Assembly (NCBI GenBank): GCA_049281855.1
Contig: JBAPSY010000170.1
Coordinates: forward strand, 1,151 to 65,150
Origin: Anaerolineales bacterium
GTDB lineage: Bacteria > Chloroflexota > Anaerolineae > Anaerolineales > UBA4823
DNA length: 64,000 nucleotides
Direction: 5' to 3'
How positions within the stretch are numbered: position 1 is the stretch's first letter; every line of letters begins with the position of its first letter. Position numbers and translations under genes: made by a program. The notes beneath the pieces are model-generated. The model did no database searches and was not told where the DNA came from. It saw only the letters and a list, made by a program, of their open reading frames with translations. Of this stretch, positions 16,423-28,949 are shown piece by piece.

Positions 16423-17799
16423 TCATTCAGGTTTGAATGGATTTAGCGAAATTGTAAATTCCGCGCCCTGACCAGGGGCACTCTCAACGCTGATTTTCCC
16501 ACCATGCGCTTCGACCATAGACTTGGCAATCGCCAACCCAAGACCAGATTCTCCATTATGCTGCCGAGATTTATCCCCACGGTAAAAACGATCAAAAATA
16601 TGGGGTAAGTCTTCTGCAGTAATACCTCTACCGGTATCCTTTACCTTTATCTGAACATCCCCATTCGCTGCATACGCTCCAAGCAGCACCTTGCCCCCTT
16701 CAGGGGTATAACGAAACGCATTCAATATGAGGTTATCCAACACTTGAGACATACGCTCCACGTCCACATTCACCAGTGGCAAATCTTCCTCGGCATCAAT
16801 CAGCAAAGTGATTTGACGTTGTTTGGCAGTCGCGGTGTGACGTGCGACTACGCGTTCGAGAAGTGCATGAGGGCGAGTAGGCTGAAGGGATAGAGACAAT
16901 TCACCAGCATCAGCCAGCGAAAGCAAGCGCAGGTCATCCACCAGGTGATCAAGGTGTTTGGTTTCCTGCAACAGGATGTTATACACCTCCTGATTCCCTG
17001 GTAATTTATTATCACTCAGCGCCTCAGCGTATCCCGTAATGACGCTCAACGGAGAGCGTAGGTCATGGGCTATATCCGCAGTCATTTGCTGGCGGGCTTT
17101 GGTCGCTTTTTCAAGGTCGAGGCTCATTTGATTAAACGAAGTGGCTAACTTTCCGATCTCATCCTTGGAGCGTACTTTAACCTGTTTACCGAACCTACCC
17201 CTGGCAATCTCAACCGTAACCTCGGTTAAATCTCGCAATGAGCGGGTCATGGTAAATGCAAGCAACCCACCCAAGCACAGGGCTAATAATACTGCCACCG
17301 AGGCGCTCAGCAGGGTGGCGCTATTTACATTGCGGAGGAAATTGGCTTCAGGGGTGTTGGGGGTAAAATTGCGACTGACTGGCGTTAACACCAACCAGCC
17401 GATGGTTTGATTATTGACTTGAAGGGAGATCGCTCCTGTCAGATTGCTCTTATTTAGCGTATGCCCGATTTCATCAGGCTGGTTACTGTAAATAACGACG
17501 CGATCTAGTCCGACAAGGGTAAACGGACTTCCTCCTATAGGAATGTTATGACCTCCCACTTGCCGCAGCGGAGGGGAGCTTTGCAGGAAGGTGATGTCAT
17601 TACCCACTCCTGCCCAAGAACCATTTGCCTGGTAATAAACAATGAGGTTATCCGCCAGGGTTTGCTGTTCCTGGTTGACGATGAAATTACTGAACGCGGC
17701 TCGTGTTCGCTGTTGGACAATTACCGTCACCAGGATCGAGCCAGTCAGGCCAACCAGAAGAAATGCCAGGGTAAGTTTTACTGCCAAAGAACGCATCAC
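16423..17799 (-). CDS. Sensor histidine kinase (TM - extracytoplasmic domain - TM - HAMP - HisKA - HATPase)
   Basis: 458 aa. H-box: ADIAHDLRSPLSV. N/G boxes: LNAFRYTPEGG, DTGRGI, GLGLAIAKSMVEAHGG. Confidence 0.9.
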   Translation of the reverse strand: MMRSLAVKLTLAFLLVGLTGSILVTVIVQQRTRAAFSNFIVNQEQQTLADNLIVYYQANGSWAGVGNDITFLQSSPPLRQVGGHNIPIGGSPFTLVGLDRVVIYSNQPDEIGHTLNKSNLTGAISLQVNNQTIGWLVLTPVSRNFTPNTPEANFLRNVNSATLLSASVAVLLALCLGGLLAFTMTRSLRDLTEVTVEIARGRFGKQVKVRSKDEIGKLATSFNQMSLDLEKATKARQQMTADIAHDLRSPLSVITGYAEALSDNKLPGNQEVYNILLQETKHLDHLVDDLRLLSLADAGELSLSLQPTRPHALLERVVARHTATAKQRQITLLIDAEEDLPLVNVDVERMSQVLDNLILNAFRYTPEGGKVLLGAYAANGDVQIKVKDTGRGITAEDLPHIFDRFYRGDKSRQHNGESGLGLAIAKSMVEAHGGKISVESAPGQGAEFTISLNPFKPE

Positions 17800-23925: not shown

Positions 23926-26547
23926 TTAACACTCAGAATACCCGCACGCGTAGCATTTACGGCAGCCTTCTTCATTAACAACTGCTGCTTGACCACAATC
24001 CGGACATAGATCGCCAATCTGGAAGGCTGGTTGTGCCGCCGAATGTGTTTGTTCCGGGATATCTGATGGACGAATTGGGTATTTCCCGTAACCACCATTC
24101 CCACCGTTGGCGGCAGCTTCTTGATATTCCTCCGAATCTTCAAGATATTCCGCCAGGGTTTGGGCTACCCCGTCCGGGAGCGAACGCACCCGGTTGGGAC
24201 CAAAGCCTAATGATCTCCCACCCCCTATACCAGAGAGCTGCTTGACAATCTCCTTAAGCCGCTCGCGCGGCATGATTGGAGAGGCAATGCGCAGCAGGTA
24301 TGAGATTAACCGTCCAATGGCCTCAGAGACTGCAGCAGTTTCTGAGCCAGCTTTGGCCGTGCTGACAAATACCTCAAATGGATGATCGCCGCCATTCTCA
24401 TTGACTGTCACGAAAGCTTTTCCTACCGGAGTGCTGATGCTATACGTGTAGCCTCTCAAGCGTCGCGGGCGAGGCTTTTTCGATACTGACCAAACGTGTT
24501 CCTCTTCAGCAGAGATGATGGCTTTCTTGTCTTCTTGAATTTGTTCGCCTTGAAGGTTAAATTCTCTTTCTCGTGAGGTGGCTTTCGTCTCCAGGACGAC
24601 CTTCTGCCGGGACCCAGTCACATAAACTGTAATCCCTTTACATGCCAACTTCCAGGCCAACAAGTATGCAGTGGCAACATCCTCTTCGGTGGCATTGGGC
24701 GGGAAGTTCACCGTCTTGCTGAGACTGTTATCCACAAAAGCCTGCATGGCTGCCTGCATGCGTACATGTTCCTCGGCACTGATATCCTGCGAAACGACAA
24801 ACACATGTTGGATCTGCTCGGGGACTGCTTCGTTCCCCTGGCAGGTGCCGCTCTCCATCACCTGTTCAACGATCGACTGGCGCGTATGCTCGTCGATCCC
24901 TCCGTCTAACAACGCATTTTCAAATTGGGGGCTGGTATAGGTCAGTGGCAGGTCATGCCCGTTATCGTTTACGTGGCGGATATAAGCCAGGGCAAACACC
25001 GGCTCACAACCGTATCCTTCACATCCAGCAACAGTGGCGATGGTGCCTGTGGGCGCTATGGTGGTTTGGGCAGCATTGCGAATGCCATGGGTCTTGATCC
25101 CCTGAACGACATTTTCCCAGTCCACTGCAGGTCGATTGAAATCACGACTGAATGGTGTGATTGGCTTGGGAGGTACCCAACCTATCTGTTCAGGGTCATA
25201 GATAGAACCCTTGATGGATGGGAAAGCCCCTCGTTTTCCAGCCAACTCGATGCTGGTAAGCATGGCATGATACCGGATGAATTCCATCACCTGCGCCGCA
25301 AATTCCTGCCCTTCTTCTGAGCCATAACGGATGCCGCAGTGATACATCAAATCGCCCAGGCCCATCATCCCCAACCCTATCCGGCGAGCCTGATCAGCGG
25401 CTTTTTTGAGCTGAGGCACCGCTGGGACGTATGCATTGGCTTGAATGACATCATCCAAAAAAATAGTGGCGGTTTCCACTGCGACACGCAGCTTCTCCCA
25501 ATCCACCTGATGGATTGCACCAAGCATTTCCGCCAGGTTCACTGAACCCAGACAGCAGTTTTCATATGGACCCAACCATTGCTCCCCGCAAGGATTGGTT
25601 GCTTCAAGCTGGTATAAATGAGGAACAGGATTGGAACGATTTGCAGTGTCCAAAAACAGCATGCCGGGTTCCCCGTTGTGGTGGGCTTGCTTAACGATTT
25701 TATCGAATAAATCGCGTGCTCTGACTTGCCGGTAGGTGATGATGGGGATACCGGCTTTCTCGGCCATCTCCAACGTCCCGTGAAATTCATGGTATGCAGG
25801 GCTGGCAACATCCGGAAAGCGCAGATCCCACATTCCATCGTTTTCCACGGCATGTATAAAAGCATCGGTGATCCCTACTGAGATATTAAAGTTGGTGATG
25901 GCATTTTCATCCGTCTTGCAATTGATGAAATCTTCGATATCGGGGTGATCGACGCGTAATACAGCCATATTCGCACCACGGCGTGTACCACCCTGAGCAA
26001 TCTCGCCAAATGCCTTATCATATACTCGTAAGAAACCAACCGGACCAGTCGCCTGCCCAGCAGATGCTTTAACCAGCGTATTTTTTGGTCTTAGCCGGGA
26101 GAAGGAAAATCCATTCCCTCCACCAGTCTGCTGGATCAAAGCTGCATCGCGCAAGGTTTGAAATATCCCAGCCTCATGTCGTCCCATATCATCCGAAACT
26201 GGCAGCACAAAACAGGCTGCCAGCTGACCCAAGGGAGTTCCTGCGCCGGTAAATGTGGGAGAGTTGGGAAAGAATTGTTTGCTGGTGAGTAGCATGTAGA
26301 ATTGACCTGCACGGTCCATCTCATTCCCGTTCCAGATCTGCTCGACTTTAGCTACATGATAAGCTACCCGCCAAAACATTCCTTCGATACTTTCGGCAGG
26401 TTTACCTTCACGATCACGCCTGACATAACGCCGAATGAGTACCTGACGCGCGTTATCTGTTAGATGAATCTCCGATAATCCAGCAGGTATCTCAGGGGTC
26501 GGGATCAAACCATACCGGTCAATTCGTTCGTATGAAGTCTGTACCAT
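23926..26547 (-). CDS. nrdJ: Adenosylcobalamin-dependent (class II) ribonucleotide reductase
   Basis: ORF 23926..26565 starts at GTG. I prefer ATG 26547, which has GGAGAG upstream. The active-site region is [20 protein letters not shown]. The C-terminal Cys-rich Zn ribbon CPDCG...CRKCYACG is known from many class II RNRs. Confidence 0.92.
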
Positions 26548-26576
26548 AATAGCTCTCCAAACCACCTTAATAATTC

Positions 26577-27026
26577 TCAGCCTTCCAATAAATGGTCGAT
26601 CTCATTGCGGATGGAGCGTAAATCATCCAAACCAAGATAAACAATGGCATAACGAATGTAGGCAATCTGGTCCATTTCCTTTAGACCTGCGATGACCATA
26701 TCACCAACCACCCGGGAGGAAACTTCCGCACGCCCCATAGCTTGGAGTGTAGCTTCAATCTCCCCCACCAGCCGATCAACATCAGCTGCAGGGACGGGAC
26801 GCTTAGCACATGCGATGCGTATACCCCGGCTTAGTTTCTCATGATCGAACTCTTCGCGCGTTCCATCCTGTTTTACGATCAGCGGTGTTGCCAGGATAGG
26901 ACGCTCATAAGTACTAAAACGTTGACCGCAATTCTCACATTCCCTGCGGCGTCTTACTCCGCCACGTGTATCGTGTGAAGTGTCAATTACCCTAGATTCA
27001 TCATGTCTGCAATAAGGACAGCGCAT
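26577..27026 (-). CDS. nrdR: Transcriptional repressor NrdR
   Basis: 149 aa. It has a Zn ribbon (MRCPYCRH...[12 protein letters not shown]) and an ATP-cone domain. Confidence 0.95.
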
Positions 27027-27035
27027 ATGTTTTAC

Positions 27036-27647
27036 CTATGTTTCTAGAACATTTGTAATCGCTATAGAAGGGGGTTCCACATCCCTATACCCGCACAGGT
27101 GGGAGTGGAAGTGCTCAAATTTTAGCACAGGGTTCTTCACTATGCAAGAGAAATATGAGCGATTATTCTTAAAATATTCACAATGATTCAAATCTTTAAG
27201 ATTGGTAGATATTTGATGGTTGTTAAATGTAGAGTACATTCGAAGTGGCAAAAAAACTCCCCCATTTTTCTGATTTTCTGAGATAAAACAAATCCTCCCG
27301 TTATCCATCTGTGTAGGGTTCCTATGCTTCCCACCAACCCACTTAGTGGCACAAATTGATGCAGTGGGCCGGTGGGGATTGCCGGGAGGAGGAGGCCAGC
27401 AATCCCCTACCAAGCTTACAACCTCACCCAAACGACCACGTTCAACCCCAAAACCGGATAAATGCAGGGTGAAGTAACAACACTTTCGGGATCTGCTCTG
27501 ACACAGGTGTAGATACGTCTCCATCCCGAAACGATAAGGATATCTTGCCAGGCACCCGTCTGAATTTCGGACAGATACCCGTAGATTTTCCGGGAGTTTC
27601 CGGCGCAGCGCCCCCCTGGCGATATCGCCGGGAGCTGCGCGTGGCAT
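27036..27647 (-). other. Unassigned ftsZ-nrdR spacer. It contains a stop-free 203-codon frame whose 5' two-thirds is also a GC-rich, densely stem-looped stretch (candidate structured RNA).
   Basis: The ORF 27036..27647 has an ATG preceded by AGGAAAGGGA and ends 9 nt before nrdR. Its translation is Cys/His/Arg/Asn-rich and matches no family I know. Strong stems lie at 27603-27640, 27484-27531 and 27374-27407. Confidence 0.3.
27119..27147 (-). promoter_or_regulatory. Candidate sigma-70-type promoter for nrdR-nrdJ
   Basis: The minus strand reads TTGCAT, a 17-nt spacer, then TAAAAT, about 90 nt upstream of the nrdR ATG. A weak NrdR-box half-site (GCATAGTG) overlaps the -35. Confidence 0.35.
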
Positions 27648-27685
27648 GCTGATCCCTTTCCTAAACCAGACTGCGCAAACCTAGA

Positions 27686-28840
27686 CTAATTATGAATGCG
27701 GTTTCGCAGGAAGGTTGGGATATCCAAGTCCTCAGTATTGAATGTGCGCGGTGTAAAGTCGGTCTTGGCAACCTCGACGGACTGCAGCTCACGCGCCGCC
27801 TCATCCTGGATCATGGTTGGCTTTTCCTGACGCAACGAGTTTTTCTGTGGCTCAGCTGTCCGACGGACTGCCATACCTGTGCGTTCAAAACCCGTCGCGA
27901 TCACCGTCACGCGCACTTCATCGCCCATGTTCTGGTCAATCACTGCACCGAAGATCAAATTAACATCCGGATGCGCAGTTTCCTTAATTATTGCAGCCGC
28001 CTGATTGACCTCGAACAAGGTCAGGTCGGGTCCACCGGTGACGTTGAACAGGATGCCGCGTGCACCATCGATAGTGATATCCAGCAACTGGCTGGAAATA
28101 GCTTGCTCAGCTGCCATTTTTGCGCGATCATCCCCGCGCCCAGTGCCCACTGCCATAAGCGCTGCACCGCCTTCAGACATGATCGTCCGTACATCTGCAA
28201 AGTCCAGGTTGATCAGTCCAGGGACGGTGATCAGCTCTGAAATACCCTGTACACCCTGGCGAAGTACATCATCGGCGACCCTGAATGCATCCTGTAGATT
28301 GGCATGTTTATCGACGATTTGAAGCAAGCGGTCATTGGGGATGACGATCAATGTATCGGCTTGCTCCTTCAATTTTTCGATGCCTGCTTCTGCAACCTGG
28401 ATGCGTTTTGAGCCTTCAAATGCAAATGGACGGGTGACCACACCAATGGTAAGGGCACCAAGCTCGCGTCCGATCTGTGCAATCATGGAGGCAGCTCCGG
28501 TACCGGTACCACCACCCATTCCACCGGTGACGAAGACCATATCCGCCCCGCGCAGCACGTTGTAAAGGGCTTCCTGTGATTCTTCGGCAGCCTTGCGCCC
28601 TTGCTCCGGGTTTCCACCGGAACCCAGGCCTCGGGTAAGCTTTTCGCCTATACGCACCCGCGTTGGGGCGCTGGAAAGCATCAGTGCCTGGGCATCTGTG
28701 TTTATGGCAATGAATTCAACACCCTGAAGACCTTCTTTGATCATCCTCTCAACGGCGTTGCATCCACCACCTCCCACGCCCACTACTTTGATGTGGGCAA
28801 AGGATTCCAACTGGCTCGAGAAATTCATATTTTGGTTCAT
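27686..28840 (-). CDS. ftsZ: Cell division GTPase FtsZ
   Basis: 384 aa. The tubulin signature is [25 protein letters not shown] lies upstream. Confidence 0.97.
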
Positions 28841-28949
28841 GATTACGGTCCTCCTCCTAAATATATGTGAAATGAATTGGTATTTCGCTGGTTCGCTCTA
28901 TTAGCGATCCCAAATTATTGCAAGTGTAAGGTATGGAAAGAGTATTCAC

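Follow-up and report, generated by a model that had tools for sequence, protein, structure and literature searches.

The 659-nt spacer between ftsZ and nrdR (27027-27685) in the window, that is, the whole 64-kb stretch of Anaerolineales DNA analysed here, is read in this study as a region of three layers: a folded RNA, the promoter region of nrdR, and an open reading frame (ORF) that is confined to one genus and is translated for the sake of translation itself. We give this reading a probability of about 0.55. Since selection holds the frame open and is indifferent to the encoded product, the act of translation would be the function. A preliminary description of this DNA had treated a 203-codon ORF and a structured RNA as mutually exclusive interpretations. 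Both signals, the open frame and the covarying helices, were recovered, and it is their mutual exclusion that has to be given up. More than 40 lineages hold a 600-nt frame open while the peptide drifts neutrally and the same bases take part in covarying helices. Genome annotation equates a conserved long ORF with a protein and takes structured RNA to be untranslated; both assumptions are broken at this locus.

Selection on the reading frame between ftsZ and nrdR

The frame, referred to below as the bridge ORF, occupies 27036-27647 on the minus strand. It was characterized by its pattern of stops, the ratio of nonsynonymous to synonymous differences (pN/pS), its codon score, the confidence of its predicted structure (pLDDT) and its lack of a homologue. 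Its outline is present just as first described: 203 codons, a purine-rich sequence resembling a Shine-Dalgarno (SD) element, AGGAAAGGGA (27653-27662, minus strand), 5 nt 5′ of the ATG, and a TAG 9 nt before nrdR. The ATG sits 38 nt past the ftsZ stop, and the purine-rich sequence is conserved as GGGAwAGGGAUC.

The copies compared were 42 distinct spacers, taken from genomes of the genus and from JGI metagenome contigs. The ATG is kept in all 42, and a frame of 202-205 codons is intact in 39. The alignment of these 39 intact copies is free of columns with an in-frame stop; read in the +1 and +2 frames, it has 65 and 75 stop-bearing columns. If stops are taken to be equally probable in each frame, the chance of finding no in-frame stop column is ~2e-25, which bears out the earlier remark that the frame stays open even where stops should be frequent. 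About half of the off-frame stop columns are lineage-specific, so such stops arose repeatedly. Furthermore, segments in which the copies differ pairwise by 0.5-0.6 are as free of in-frame stops as the conserved segments.

Insertions and deletions inside the frame of the intact copies are of 3 nt, and one of the broken copies (L012) additionally carries a 9-nt deletion. Single-nucleotide indels are located upstream of the ATG (four of them in a stretch of 40 nt), past the stop, or in the final ~30 codons, where an alternative frame is likewise open. Three copies switch frame in this last part and yet remain open, two of them ending just inside nrdR. All 28 of the aligned copies that come from short-read metagenomes are open from the ATG through to nrdR. 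We are highly confident that the frame is under selection.

In five genomes (L005:965-2122, L011, L013, L015 and L017) an insertion of 340-500 nt lies straight after ftsZ. It contains a conserved hydrophobic ORF of 42 codons (MNWLLVLG...AGMCAAAH...) with a strong GGAGG SD, which looks like a genuine small membrane protein. In two of the five, the bridge ORF is lengthened upstream, and its new ATG overlaps the stop of the inserted small gene in ATGACTAA; in the other three it begins at the equivalent of Met42, ~40 codons downstream. No long ORF spanning the spacer was found in the spacers inspected from other genera. Because these genera have the central hairpin of the folded RNA (H6, below) without such an ORF, the hairpin is old and the ORF a genus-level addition on top of it.

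The downstream end of the frame is closely fitted to nrdR. In the window, the stop UAG lies within UAGG (27035-27038, minus strand), overlaps the AGG of the nrdR SD and stands 9 nt before the nrdR AUG. In 31 copies the distance from the stop to the nrdR ATG downstream is 2-10 nt; in seven others the ORF overruns this ATG and stops, out of frame with nrdR, 20-40 nt into the gene. Where it lies upstream of nrdR it is mostly a UAG within a conserved UAGG that doubles as the nrdR SD. Such a position would suit the geometry of coupling by termination and reinitiation.

Readthrough from FtsZ or fusion with either neighbour was ruled out, as the frame relation of the ORF to both neighbours differs among genomes. 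A gene on the opposite strand was ruled out as well; the reverse frames hold 2-14 stops, and the G-U pairs of the RNA fit the sense strand alone. One copy (L019, on contig C13 of G015), from a long-read metagenome-assembled genome (MAG), has a late 1-nt insertion that yields a 356-codon fusion of the ORF with NrdR, no stop standing between them; this fusion may be an assembly error.

Signs of free drift in the encoded peptide

The peptide shows little of what is expected of a protein. The mean pairwise difference is 0.317, 0.343 and 0.319 at codon positions 1, 2 and 3, respectively, and pN/pS comes to 0.95 in frame, with off-frame controls of 0.93 and 0.85. In 16 close pairs, chosen at 1-15% divergence to guard against saturation, pN/pS was 0.92 for the ORF, 0.12 for the 3′ end of ftsZ and 0.03 for nrdR. 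In these pairs the flanking genes have a 'synonymous' divergence of 0.23 to 0.28, and the ORF has half as much (0.11); therefore, constraint acts on the nucleotide sequence of the entire stretch. Third positions within the conserved blocks are as fixed as the first two; for example, four consecutive prolines are always written CCU CCU CCU CCC. Every conserved residue falls in a block accounted for by a hairpin, the promoter or the operator described below. Specifically, Cys168 is the TGC of the -35 hexamer, and the conserved residues of the C-terminal third are accounted for by DNA elements. Thus, of the coding interpretation that had been proposed, the open frame stood and the protein-like constraint did not: conserved amino acids with synonymous drift, the pattern named earlier as the mark of a gene, is not what a pN/pS of ~0.9 describes.

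The codon-usage score of the ORF is -0.054, as compared with 0.217 ± 0.07 for the genes of this genome (5th percentile 0.096) and about -0.1 for the same genes read out of frame. Profile searches with the peptide, as had been suggested for the 203-residue translation, found no relative in Pfam, NCBIfam or the PDB, and no match to DUF1127. AlphaFold2, given a 71-sequence alignment, predicted no secondary structure, with a pLDDT of 42.6 and a pTM of 0.11. The 172 clusters recovered by a word-indexed search are all 'hypothetical protein' or unnamed, with no function given. When 1.84 billion representatives were searched exhaustively with a profile, this family alone was recovered, in 50 clusters at 50% identity. 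For a single genus in which NrdR is at least 94% identical, such a split amounts to extreme divergence.

Of the properties of an ordinary gene, only the conserved frame was found; purifying selection, genomic codon usage and a family or fold were absent. By its sequence features, then, the ORF is not an ordinary protein gene, and the peptide itself is probably functionally irrelevant. The ~170 database clusters of this family probably do not represent proteins as usually understood, which advises caution with other families of 'hypothetical protein'.

A folded RNA with conserved and covarying helices

The same bases form a folded RNA of ~400 nt downstream of ftsZ, with the hairpin H6 as its core. 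The helix set was obtained by folding each sequence separately and mapping the folds onto alignment columns, and was then tested on the 42-sequence alignment. Global folding of the 667-column alignment with RNAalifold yielded the invariant helices, some doubtful long-range pairs and nothing more, and a scan of column pairs was too noisy. The per-sequence folds place hairpins at matching alignment positions despite dissimilar sequence, with z-scores down to -5.6. In the resulting 11 helices (99 pairs), 85.0% of the cells are paired, as against 37.6-48.5% when the partners are slid by 1-3 columns. Double changes number 192 cells against 80-97 in the slid controls, and the covariation score is 0.198 against 0.062-0.090. 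None of 500 shuffles attained the observed values. Most of the double changes lie in H3, H7, H8, H9 and the stem-loop H10 at the 5′ side of nrdR. Besides, G-U alternates abundantly with A-U or G-C, which is consistent only with the ftsZ/nrdR sense strand. Aligning the spacers of related genomes had been proposed at the outset as the way to look for such covariation, and with this outcome we regard the RNA structure as very probably real.

All helices are given here on the minus strand. H1 (27604-27641) is a hairpin of the form CGCGCAGCUCCCGGCG-AUAU-CGCCAGGGGGGCGCUGCG that begins 6 nt past the AUG of the bridge ORF and is paired in 87% of cells. H3 (27552-27578) has 11 bp and a variable sequence; its mean z-score is -3.3, and 9 of its 11 pairs change on both sides. 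H5 (27421-27475), formed by CUUCACCC and GGGUGAGG, encloses a near-invariant segment of 37 nt and is 95% paired with little variation. The core hairpin H6 (27368-27415) has 18 bp, a z-score of -5.6 and 99.5% of cells paired. Two variable hairpins follow it: H7 (27331-27367), in which 5 of 6 pairs change on both sides, and H8 (27294-27321), in which 7 of 8 do so and which is paired in 67% of cells and weak in the copy of the window. H9 (27247-27274) is an A/U-rich stem with changes on both sides in 7 of 10 pairs and an invariant GGGG in its loop. This conserved, G-rich loop, UGGGGGAG (27257-27264), resembles an SD and could pair with the loop of H6. Further 3′, the stem-loop H10/H11 (27075-27110), in which one pair changes from U-A to C-G in 13 sequences, is predicted to lie at the 5′ end of the nrdR mRNA, its place in that transcript being deduced from the -10 element. 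Three stems had been pointed out at 27603-27640, 27484-27531 and 27374-27407. All three are present, and the first and the last of them correspond to H1 and H6, which are conserved among relatives.

The Rfam scan that had been advised gave no family at gathering score in the 64-kb window. At E<=10, the segment 26950-27750 gave two chance-level matches, neither of them a cobalamin model, and at E<=0.1 ten related spacers gave no cobalamin model and one sub-threshold match to ar14. All Rfam matches, which were to mir-2237, isrH and ar14, are below threshold and at chance level.

The H6 hairpin carries an anti-Shine-Dalgarno loop

The anti-SD motif CCUCCUCCC is contained in the H6 loop CCUCCUCCUC (27386-27395) extended by the first CC of the 3′ arm; translated in the frame of the bridge ORF, the loop gives the four proline codons mentioned above. 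The hairpin is unique in its genome. A covariance model of H5 and H6 (R1) scores 130-145 bits, and does so within the genus only. Outside it, R1 gave six weak matches in 300 other genomes of the order, four of which are in the ftsZ-nrdR spacers of other genera. Direct inspection showed the same loop in no fewer than 10 further genera, and each time it stood in the ftsZ-nrdR interval. The shared form is CGG-nCUCCUCC(U)C-CCG, in which CGG/CCG closes the loop and the stems are unrelated; eleven different stems of 6-20 bp surround the same loop. Among ten other genera with the hairpin, nine carry CCUCCUCCC and one (L101) has CCUCCUCCG.

A model of the small hairpin alone (R2) was also run on 250 other genomes of the class, and none of the 29 loci inspected there adjoins ftsZ or nrdR. 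The R2 matches outside the order were treated as unrelated. Because the best R2 matches elsewhere in the class are never beside ftsZ or nrdR, the ftsZ-linked hairpin is restricted to the order. In one genome of the class (G428), ten clustered copies (C2 94933-163929 and C1 2796327) match the model of a hairpin with a CCUCCUCC loop; they may represent either a cuckoo-like RNA in several copies or a family of repeats.

A possible partner for the loop lies at the other end of the upstream gene. The SD of ftsZ, AGGAGGAGG (28850-28858, minus strand), stands 9 nt 5′ of the ftsZ ATG and is a perfect complement of CCUCCUCCU in the H6 loop. It belongs to an unusually long SD, AGGAGGAGGA (28849-28858), and the 9-mer AGGAGGAGG has only six ORF-linked copies in the 3.88-Mb genome. 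The form (A/G)GAGGAGG is kept before ftsZ in all members of the genus, and GAGGAGG is also found in the four hairpin-bearing genera whose ftsZ leader was read. From this complementarity, the ftsZ SD is a tentative target of the H6 loop, one that we would sooner bet against than for. Beyond the SD, 16 of 18 nt of the H6 5′ arm can be paired with the ftsZ leader by hand in this genome. No claim is made for this extended pairing, as the leader segment varies among genomes and the arm is invariant. The hairpin suggests that ftsZ is controlled post-transcriptionally, or that division is linked to the supply of deoxynucleoside triphosphates (dNTPs), in a little-studied phylum.

Promoter and candidate operator elements of nrdR

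The last ~190 nt of the spacer would belong to nrdR, and would comprise its extended -10 promoter, an upstream operator, two elements like NrdR boxes and the 5′ stem-loop H10/H11. The promoter TTGCAT-17-TAAAAT, proposed earlier at 27119-27147, is present on the minus strand and is of the sigma-70 type, with the -35 hexamer TTGCAT at 27142-27147, a 17-nt spacer, and an extended -10, TGcTAAAAT, at 27119-27127. Its hexamers are invariant in the 42 relatives and the spacer between them is variable. Across the order, TTGC-N17-TGTGCTAGAAT likewise precedes nrdR. A simple consensus scan missed this conserved promoter and gave a weaker site at 27162-27191 instead; a consensus scan for intrinsic terminators found none in the spacer.

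Just 5′ of the -35 lies an inverted repeat, TCTTAAAG-N19-TTTTAAGA (27167-27201, minus strand), which is invariant and AT-rich and shows no covariation. In other genera the corresponding position has comparable CTTAAA...TTTAAG repeats, with a 17-nt perfect arm in L111. The repeat is a candidate operator for a regulator of the nrdR-nrdJ operon.

Two elements past the -10 resemble NrdR boxes, whose consensus was reportedly derived by Rodionov and Gelfand in 2005. The first, CCCACCTGTGCGGG (27090-27103, minus strand), is degenerate, lies inside H10 and matches the canonical boxes by its position. The second, CCCCCTTCTATAGCGA (27059-27074, minus strand), is invariant, lies ~30 bp from the first and is followed by a conserved TTACAAATGTTCTAG; it can tentatively be aligned with GCCCCTATATATGGGGGTTACGTTTGTTCTA of a genus of the same family. 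Other genera of the order have two textbook boxes, CCCCcATATATGGGGG, ~32 bp apart after the promoter. In this genus and a sister genus the AT-rich centre of the putative boxes is gone, with CCCACCTGTGCGGG and CCCCCTTCTATAGCGA instead of CCCCcATATATGGGGG. Either the specificity of NrdR has shifted or autoregulation has weakened.

A second canonical NrdR operator in the genome was sought and rejected, as the sole good palindrome adjoins a cluster of DnaA boxes and no ribonucleotide reductase (RNR) gene. Outside the window but in the same genome, at L116:2480-2625 (contig C156, ~16480-16625), three DnaA boxes of the type TTATCCACA, along with one TTTTCCACA, lie beside a palindrome, CCCCATATGTGGGG, which resembles an NrdR box. 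This cluster is probably the replication origin region.

Discussion

The observations suggest that ribosomes have to traverse the frame, whatever its product, and the most economical course of events is the following. On the minus-strand transcript, the H6 core is older than the genus, and its loop would pair with a purine-rich ribosome-binding site, for which AGGAGGAGG of ftsZ is the best candidate. Ribosomes would load at the conserved SD and AUG shortly after the ftsZ stop and cross the structured RNA and the promoter region of the read-through ftsZ transcript, 0.6 kb that would otherwise be untranslated. They would end on or just past the ribosome-binding site of nrdR and could pass to nrdR by termination and reinitiation. 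While doing so, they would shield the transcript from Rho-dependent polarity (a rho gene is present in this genome) and would melt H6 transiently. Translation of nrdR and nrdJ would thereby be coupled to the division operon. That such coupling, or anti-polarity into nrdR, is the reason for the ORF seems to us nearly an even bet, though a little short of one. A more far-reaching version, a 'ribosome conveyor', in which the ORF is selected only for translation, links the division and RNR operons and toggles the anti-SD hairpin onto the SD of ftsZ, is a long shot. If true, it would tie FtsZ synthesis, dNTP supply and translational capacity together through a single stretch of RNA. If translation itself is the function, the locus is an unusually long and clean natural case of selection on ribosome transit, and would be useful for work on Rho polarity, translational coupling and the interplay of ribosomes with RNA structure.

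Several observations weigh against the three-layer reading. A conserved promoter of nrdR lies inside the ORF; therefore, read-through transcripts and coupling are not obviously needed. Sister genera manage without the ORF. H1 follows so closely on the AUG that it should impede initiation. Furthermore, three of the 42 copies (L004, L010 and L012) have a 1-nt frameshift in the body of the ORF. All three are from long-read MAG contigs, and the frameshifts could be assembly errors, or else the ORF is dispensable. In L055, a short-read near-twin of L004, the frame is intact. Helices that tolerate frame-breaking indels had been named as evidence against coding; frameshifts in the body are limited to these three, and such tolerance was not seen. 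Codons 1-20 have a pN/pS of 0.60 against 0.90 and 1.36 in the off-frames, a weak sign of slight constraint on the peptide at its N-terminus. As to the H6 loop, it does not covary with the ftsZ leader, and a CCUCC loop is complementary to any strong SD and hence generic.

The low N-terminal pN/pS also speaks for one of the alternatives, that the ORF encodes a real, fast-evolving, basic and disordered peptide rich in Cys, His and Arg, for example an RNA-binding partner of the hairpins, in which composition and length matter. The strict keeping of frame and length (202-205 codons) would agree with this, as would the Arg-rich protein CcaF1 of Rhodobacter, which is encoded beside CCUCCUCCC hairpins and binds them (PMC8034643). 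However, beyond codon 20 the pN/pS is that of the off-frames, and the residues that are conserved are explained by the hairpin, promoter and operator, with third positions equally fixed. The non-genic codon usage, the absence of a predicted fold and of DUF1127 or any other family, the tolerance of alternative C-terminal frames, and the start ~40 codons downstream in three genomes make a functional peptide of this kind quite improbable. Somewhat less so, although still unlikely, is that translation of the ORF serves ftsZ: ribosomes would melt H6 or stall on its prolines and so set the availability of the loop for the ftsZ SD, FtsZ synthesis would follow translational capacity, and the end at nrdR would be incidental. 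Here the exact complementarity of the loop to 9 nt of an SD shared by six genes genome-wide is in favour, and the ORF always spans H6, shortened-ORF genomes included. Four prolines followed by glycine are a strong EF-P-dependent pause motif, and the H6 loop encodes PPPP and then G. This alternative gives no account of the ~100 further open codons past H6 or of the end at the nrdR start; the hairpin works without an ORF in other genera; and the proline codons lack synonymous variation, which places the constraint at that point on the RNA.

The two remaining alternatives dispense with translation. In the one, the region is a purely non-coding structured RNA or plain spacer, whose frame is open only as a consequence of composition or shared ancestry, as the codon usage, pN/pS and fold prediction would indeed allow. 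It is made very improbable by the complete lack of in-frame stop columns against 65 and 75, which extends to regions near saturation in divergence, by indels that are multiples of 3 nt inside the frame and of 1 nt outside, by the invariable ATG, and by an ORF re-anchored to the upstream gene after an insertion. In the other, a cobalamin or other known riboswitch governs the nrdR-nrdJ operon. The preliminary description had noticed motifs in the order of a cobalamin riboswitch core, and the RNR downstream is B12-dependent. The order is there; it has no statistical support, and neither a family at gathering score nor a cobalamin model at relaxed E was found. The segment read as the B12 core (27290-27365) is less conserved than any other part of the spacer (pairwise difference 0.5-0.6) and falls in H7/H8, whose sequence is not conserved. 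In addition, the nrdR promoter is downstream of H7 and H8, so both are outside the nrdR leader derived from that promoter. The element is almost certainly not a B12 riboswitch, and a known riboswitch of any class is hardly credible here, even less so than a non-coding spacer.

Comparison with known systems

In dual-function RNAs such as SgrS/SgrT, RNAIII/hld and SR1/SR1P, a base-pairing RNA and a translated frame share one transcript. Their peptides are short, lie mostly beside the regulatory part and are conserved as peptides. In contrast, the frame of the bridge ORF covers the entire RNA and its peptide is unconstrained.

The closest likeness of H6 is to the cuckoo (CcsR, alpha-r14) RNAs of Alphaproteobacteria (RF02344), in which an anti-SD-like CCUCCUCCC loop is held by variable stems (PMC4615179); in Rhodobacter, these RNAs are cut from the 3′ untranslated region of the upstream gene (PMC4615179, PMC8034643). 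H6 has the same motif in its loop, its stems differ fully between genera and are kept by compensatory changes, and, as in Rhodobacter, the hairpin lies just downstream of a gene. Unlike the cuckoo RNAs, which have 2-4 adjacent modules, there is one hairpin per locus and one in the whole genome. The host belongs to the Chloroflexota, and the hairpin is tied to the ftsZ-nrdR spacer, whereas cuckoo RNAs are tied to DUF1127 genes. RF02344 has no match in the window, and its best score, in a related spacer, is 29.6 bits against a gathering score of 58.8. A further difference is that in this genus H6 sits inside a translated frame. By analogy, H6 would work like a single cuckoo-type module that falls outside the multi-hairpin definition and the Rfam model. 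A hairpin with a CCUCCUCCC loop 3′ of ftsZ carries the cuckoo type of anti-SD module from the Alphaproteobacteria to the Chloroflexota.

The bridge ORF itself recalls the leader ORFs of attenuation systems and the upstream ORF in the structured leader of M. tuberculosis ppe2, which is required for expression of the downstream gene (bioRxiv 10.1101/2023.04.25.538288). In both cases an ORF lies in structured leader RNA and stops at or over the downstream start, the peptide is unimportant, and translational coupling and protection from Rho are proposed. The ribosome-binding site and start of the bridge ORF are conserved, and its stop lies at or overlaps the start region of nrdR. Unlike leader ORFs, which have ~10-50 codons, it has 203, spans a full internal promoter and operator, and starts right after ftsZ. 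New here are a frame of 203 codons that runs across a complete promoter and its overlap with an RNA of several covarying hairpins.

The NrdR operator at nrd promoters is a pair of 16-bp boxes separated by a linker of 15-16 bp (PMC13584703). The two elements before nrdR agree with it in being C-tract/G-tract elements ~30 bp apart just past the -10 of the nrdR-nrdJ operon. They differ from it in that the AT-rich centres are replaced and box 1 lies inside a covarying RNA stem-loop. Weinberg and colleagues are said to have described in 2017 a conserved RNA element downstream of ftsZ, the ftsZ-DE motif, which is taken here as a lead only. No Rfam model matches the window or its relatives, the presence of the ftsZ-DE motif itself in Rfam 15 being unchecked.

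Gene neighbourhood of the spacer

On the minus strand of the window the order is ftsA, ftsZ, the 659-nt spacer, nrdR and the gene for a class II RNR. ftsZ (27686-28840), recognized by its translation, is the last gene of the dcw cluster. nrdR (26577-27026) has the Pfam domains ATP-cone and Zn_ribbon_NrdR. The class II (NrdJ-type) RNR gene (23926-26565) begins 11 nt past nrdR and has Ribonuc_red_lgN/lgC and TSCPD. FtsZ is 78-88% identical across its last 119 residues within the genus and 67-85% across the whole protein in other genera. A spacer with 68-83% DNA identity is present in 19 of the 21 genomes that represent the genus; outside the genus no similarity was detectable. Its length is nearly constant (653-660 nt) among the copies, the five insertion genomes being longer. 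In one metagenome contig (Ga0154818_1150; L065) the spacer is only 531 nt, as compared with the usual ~656.

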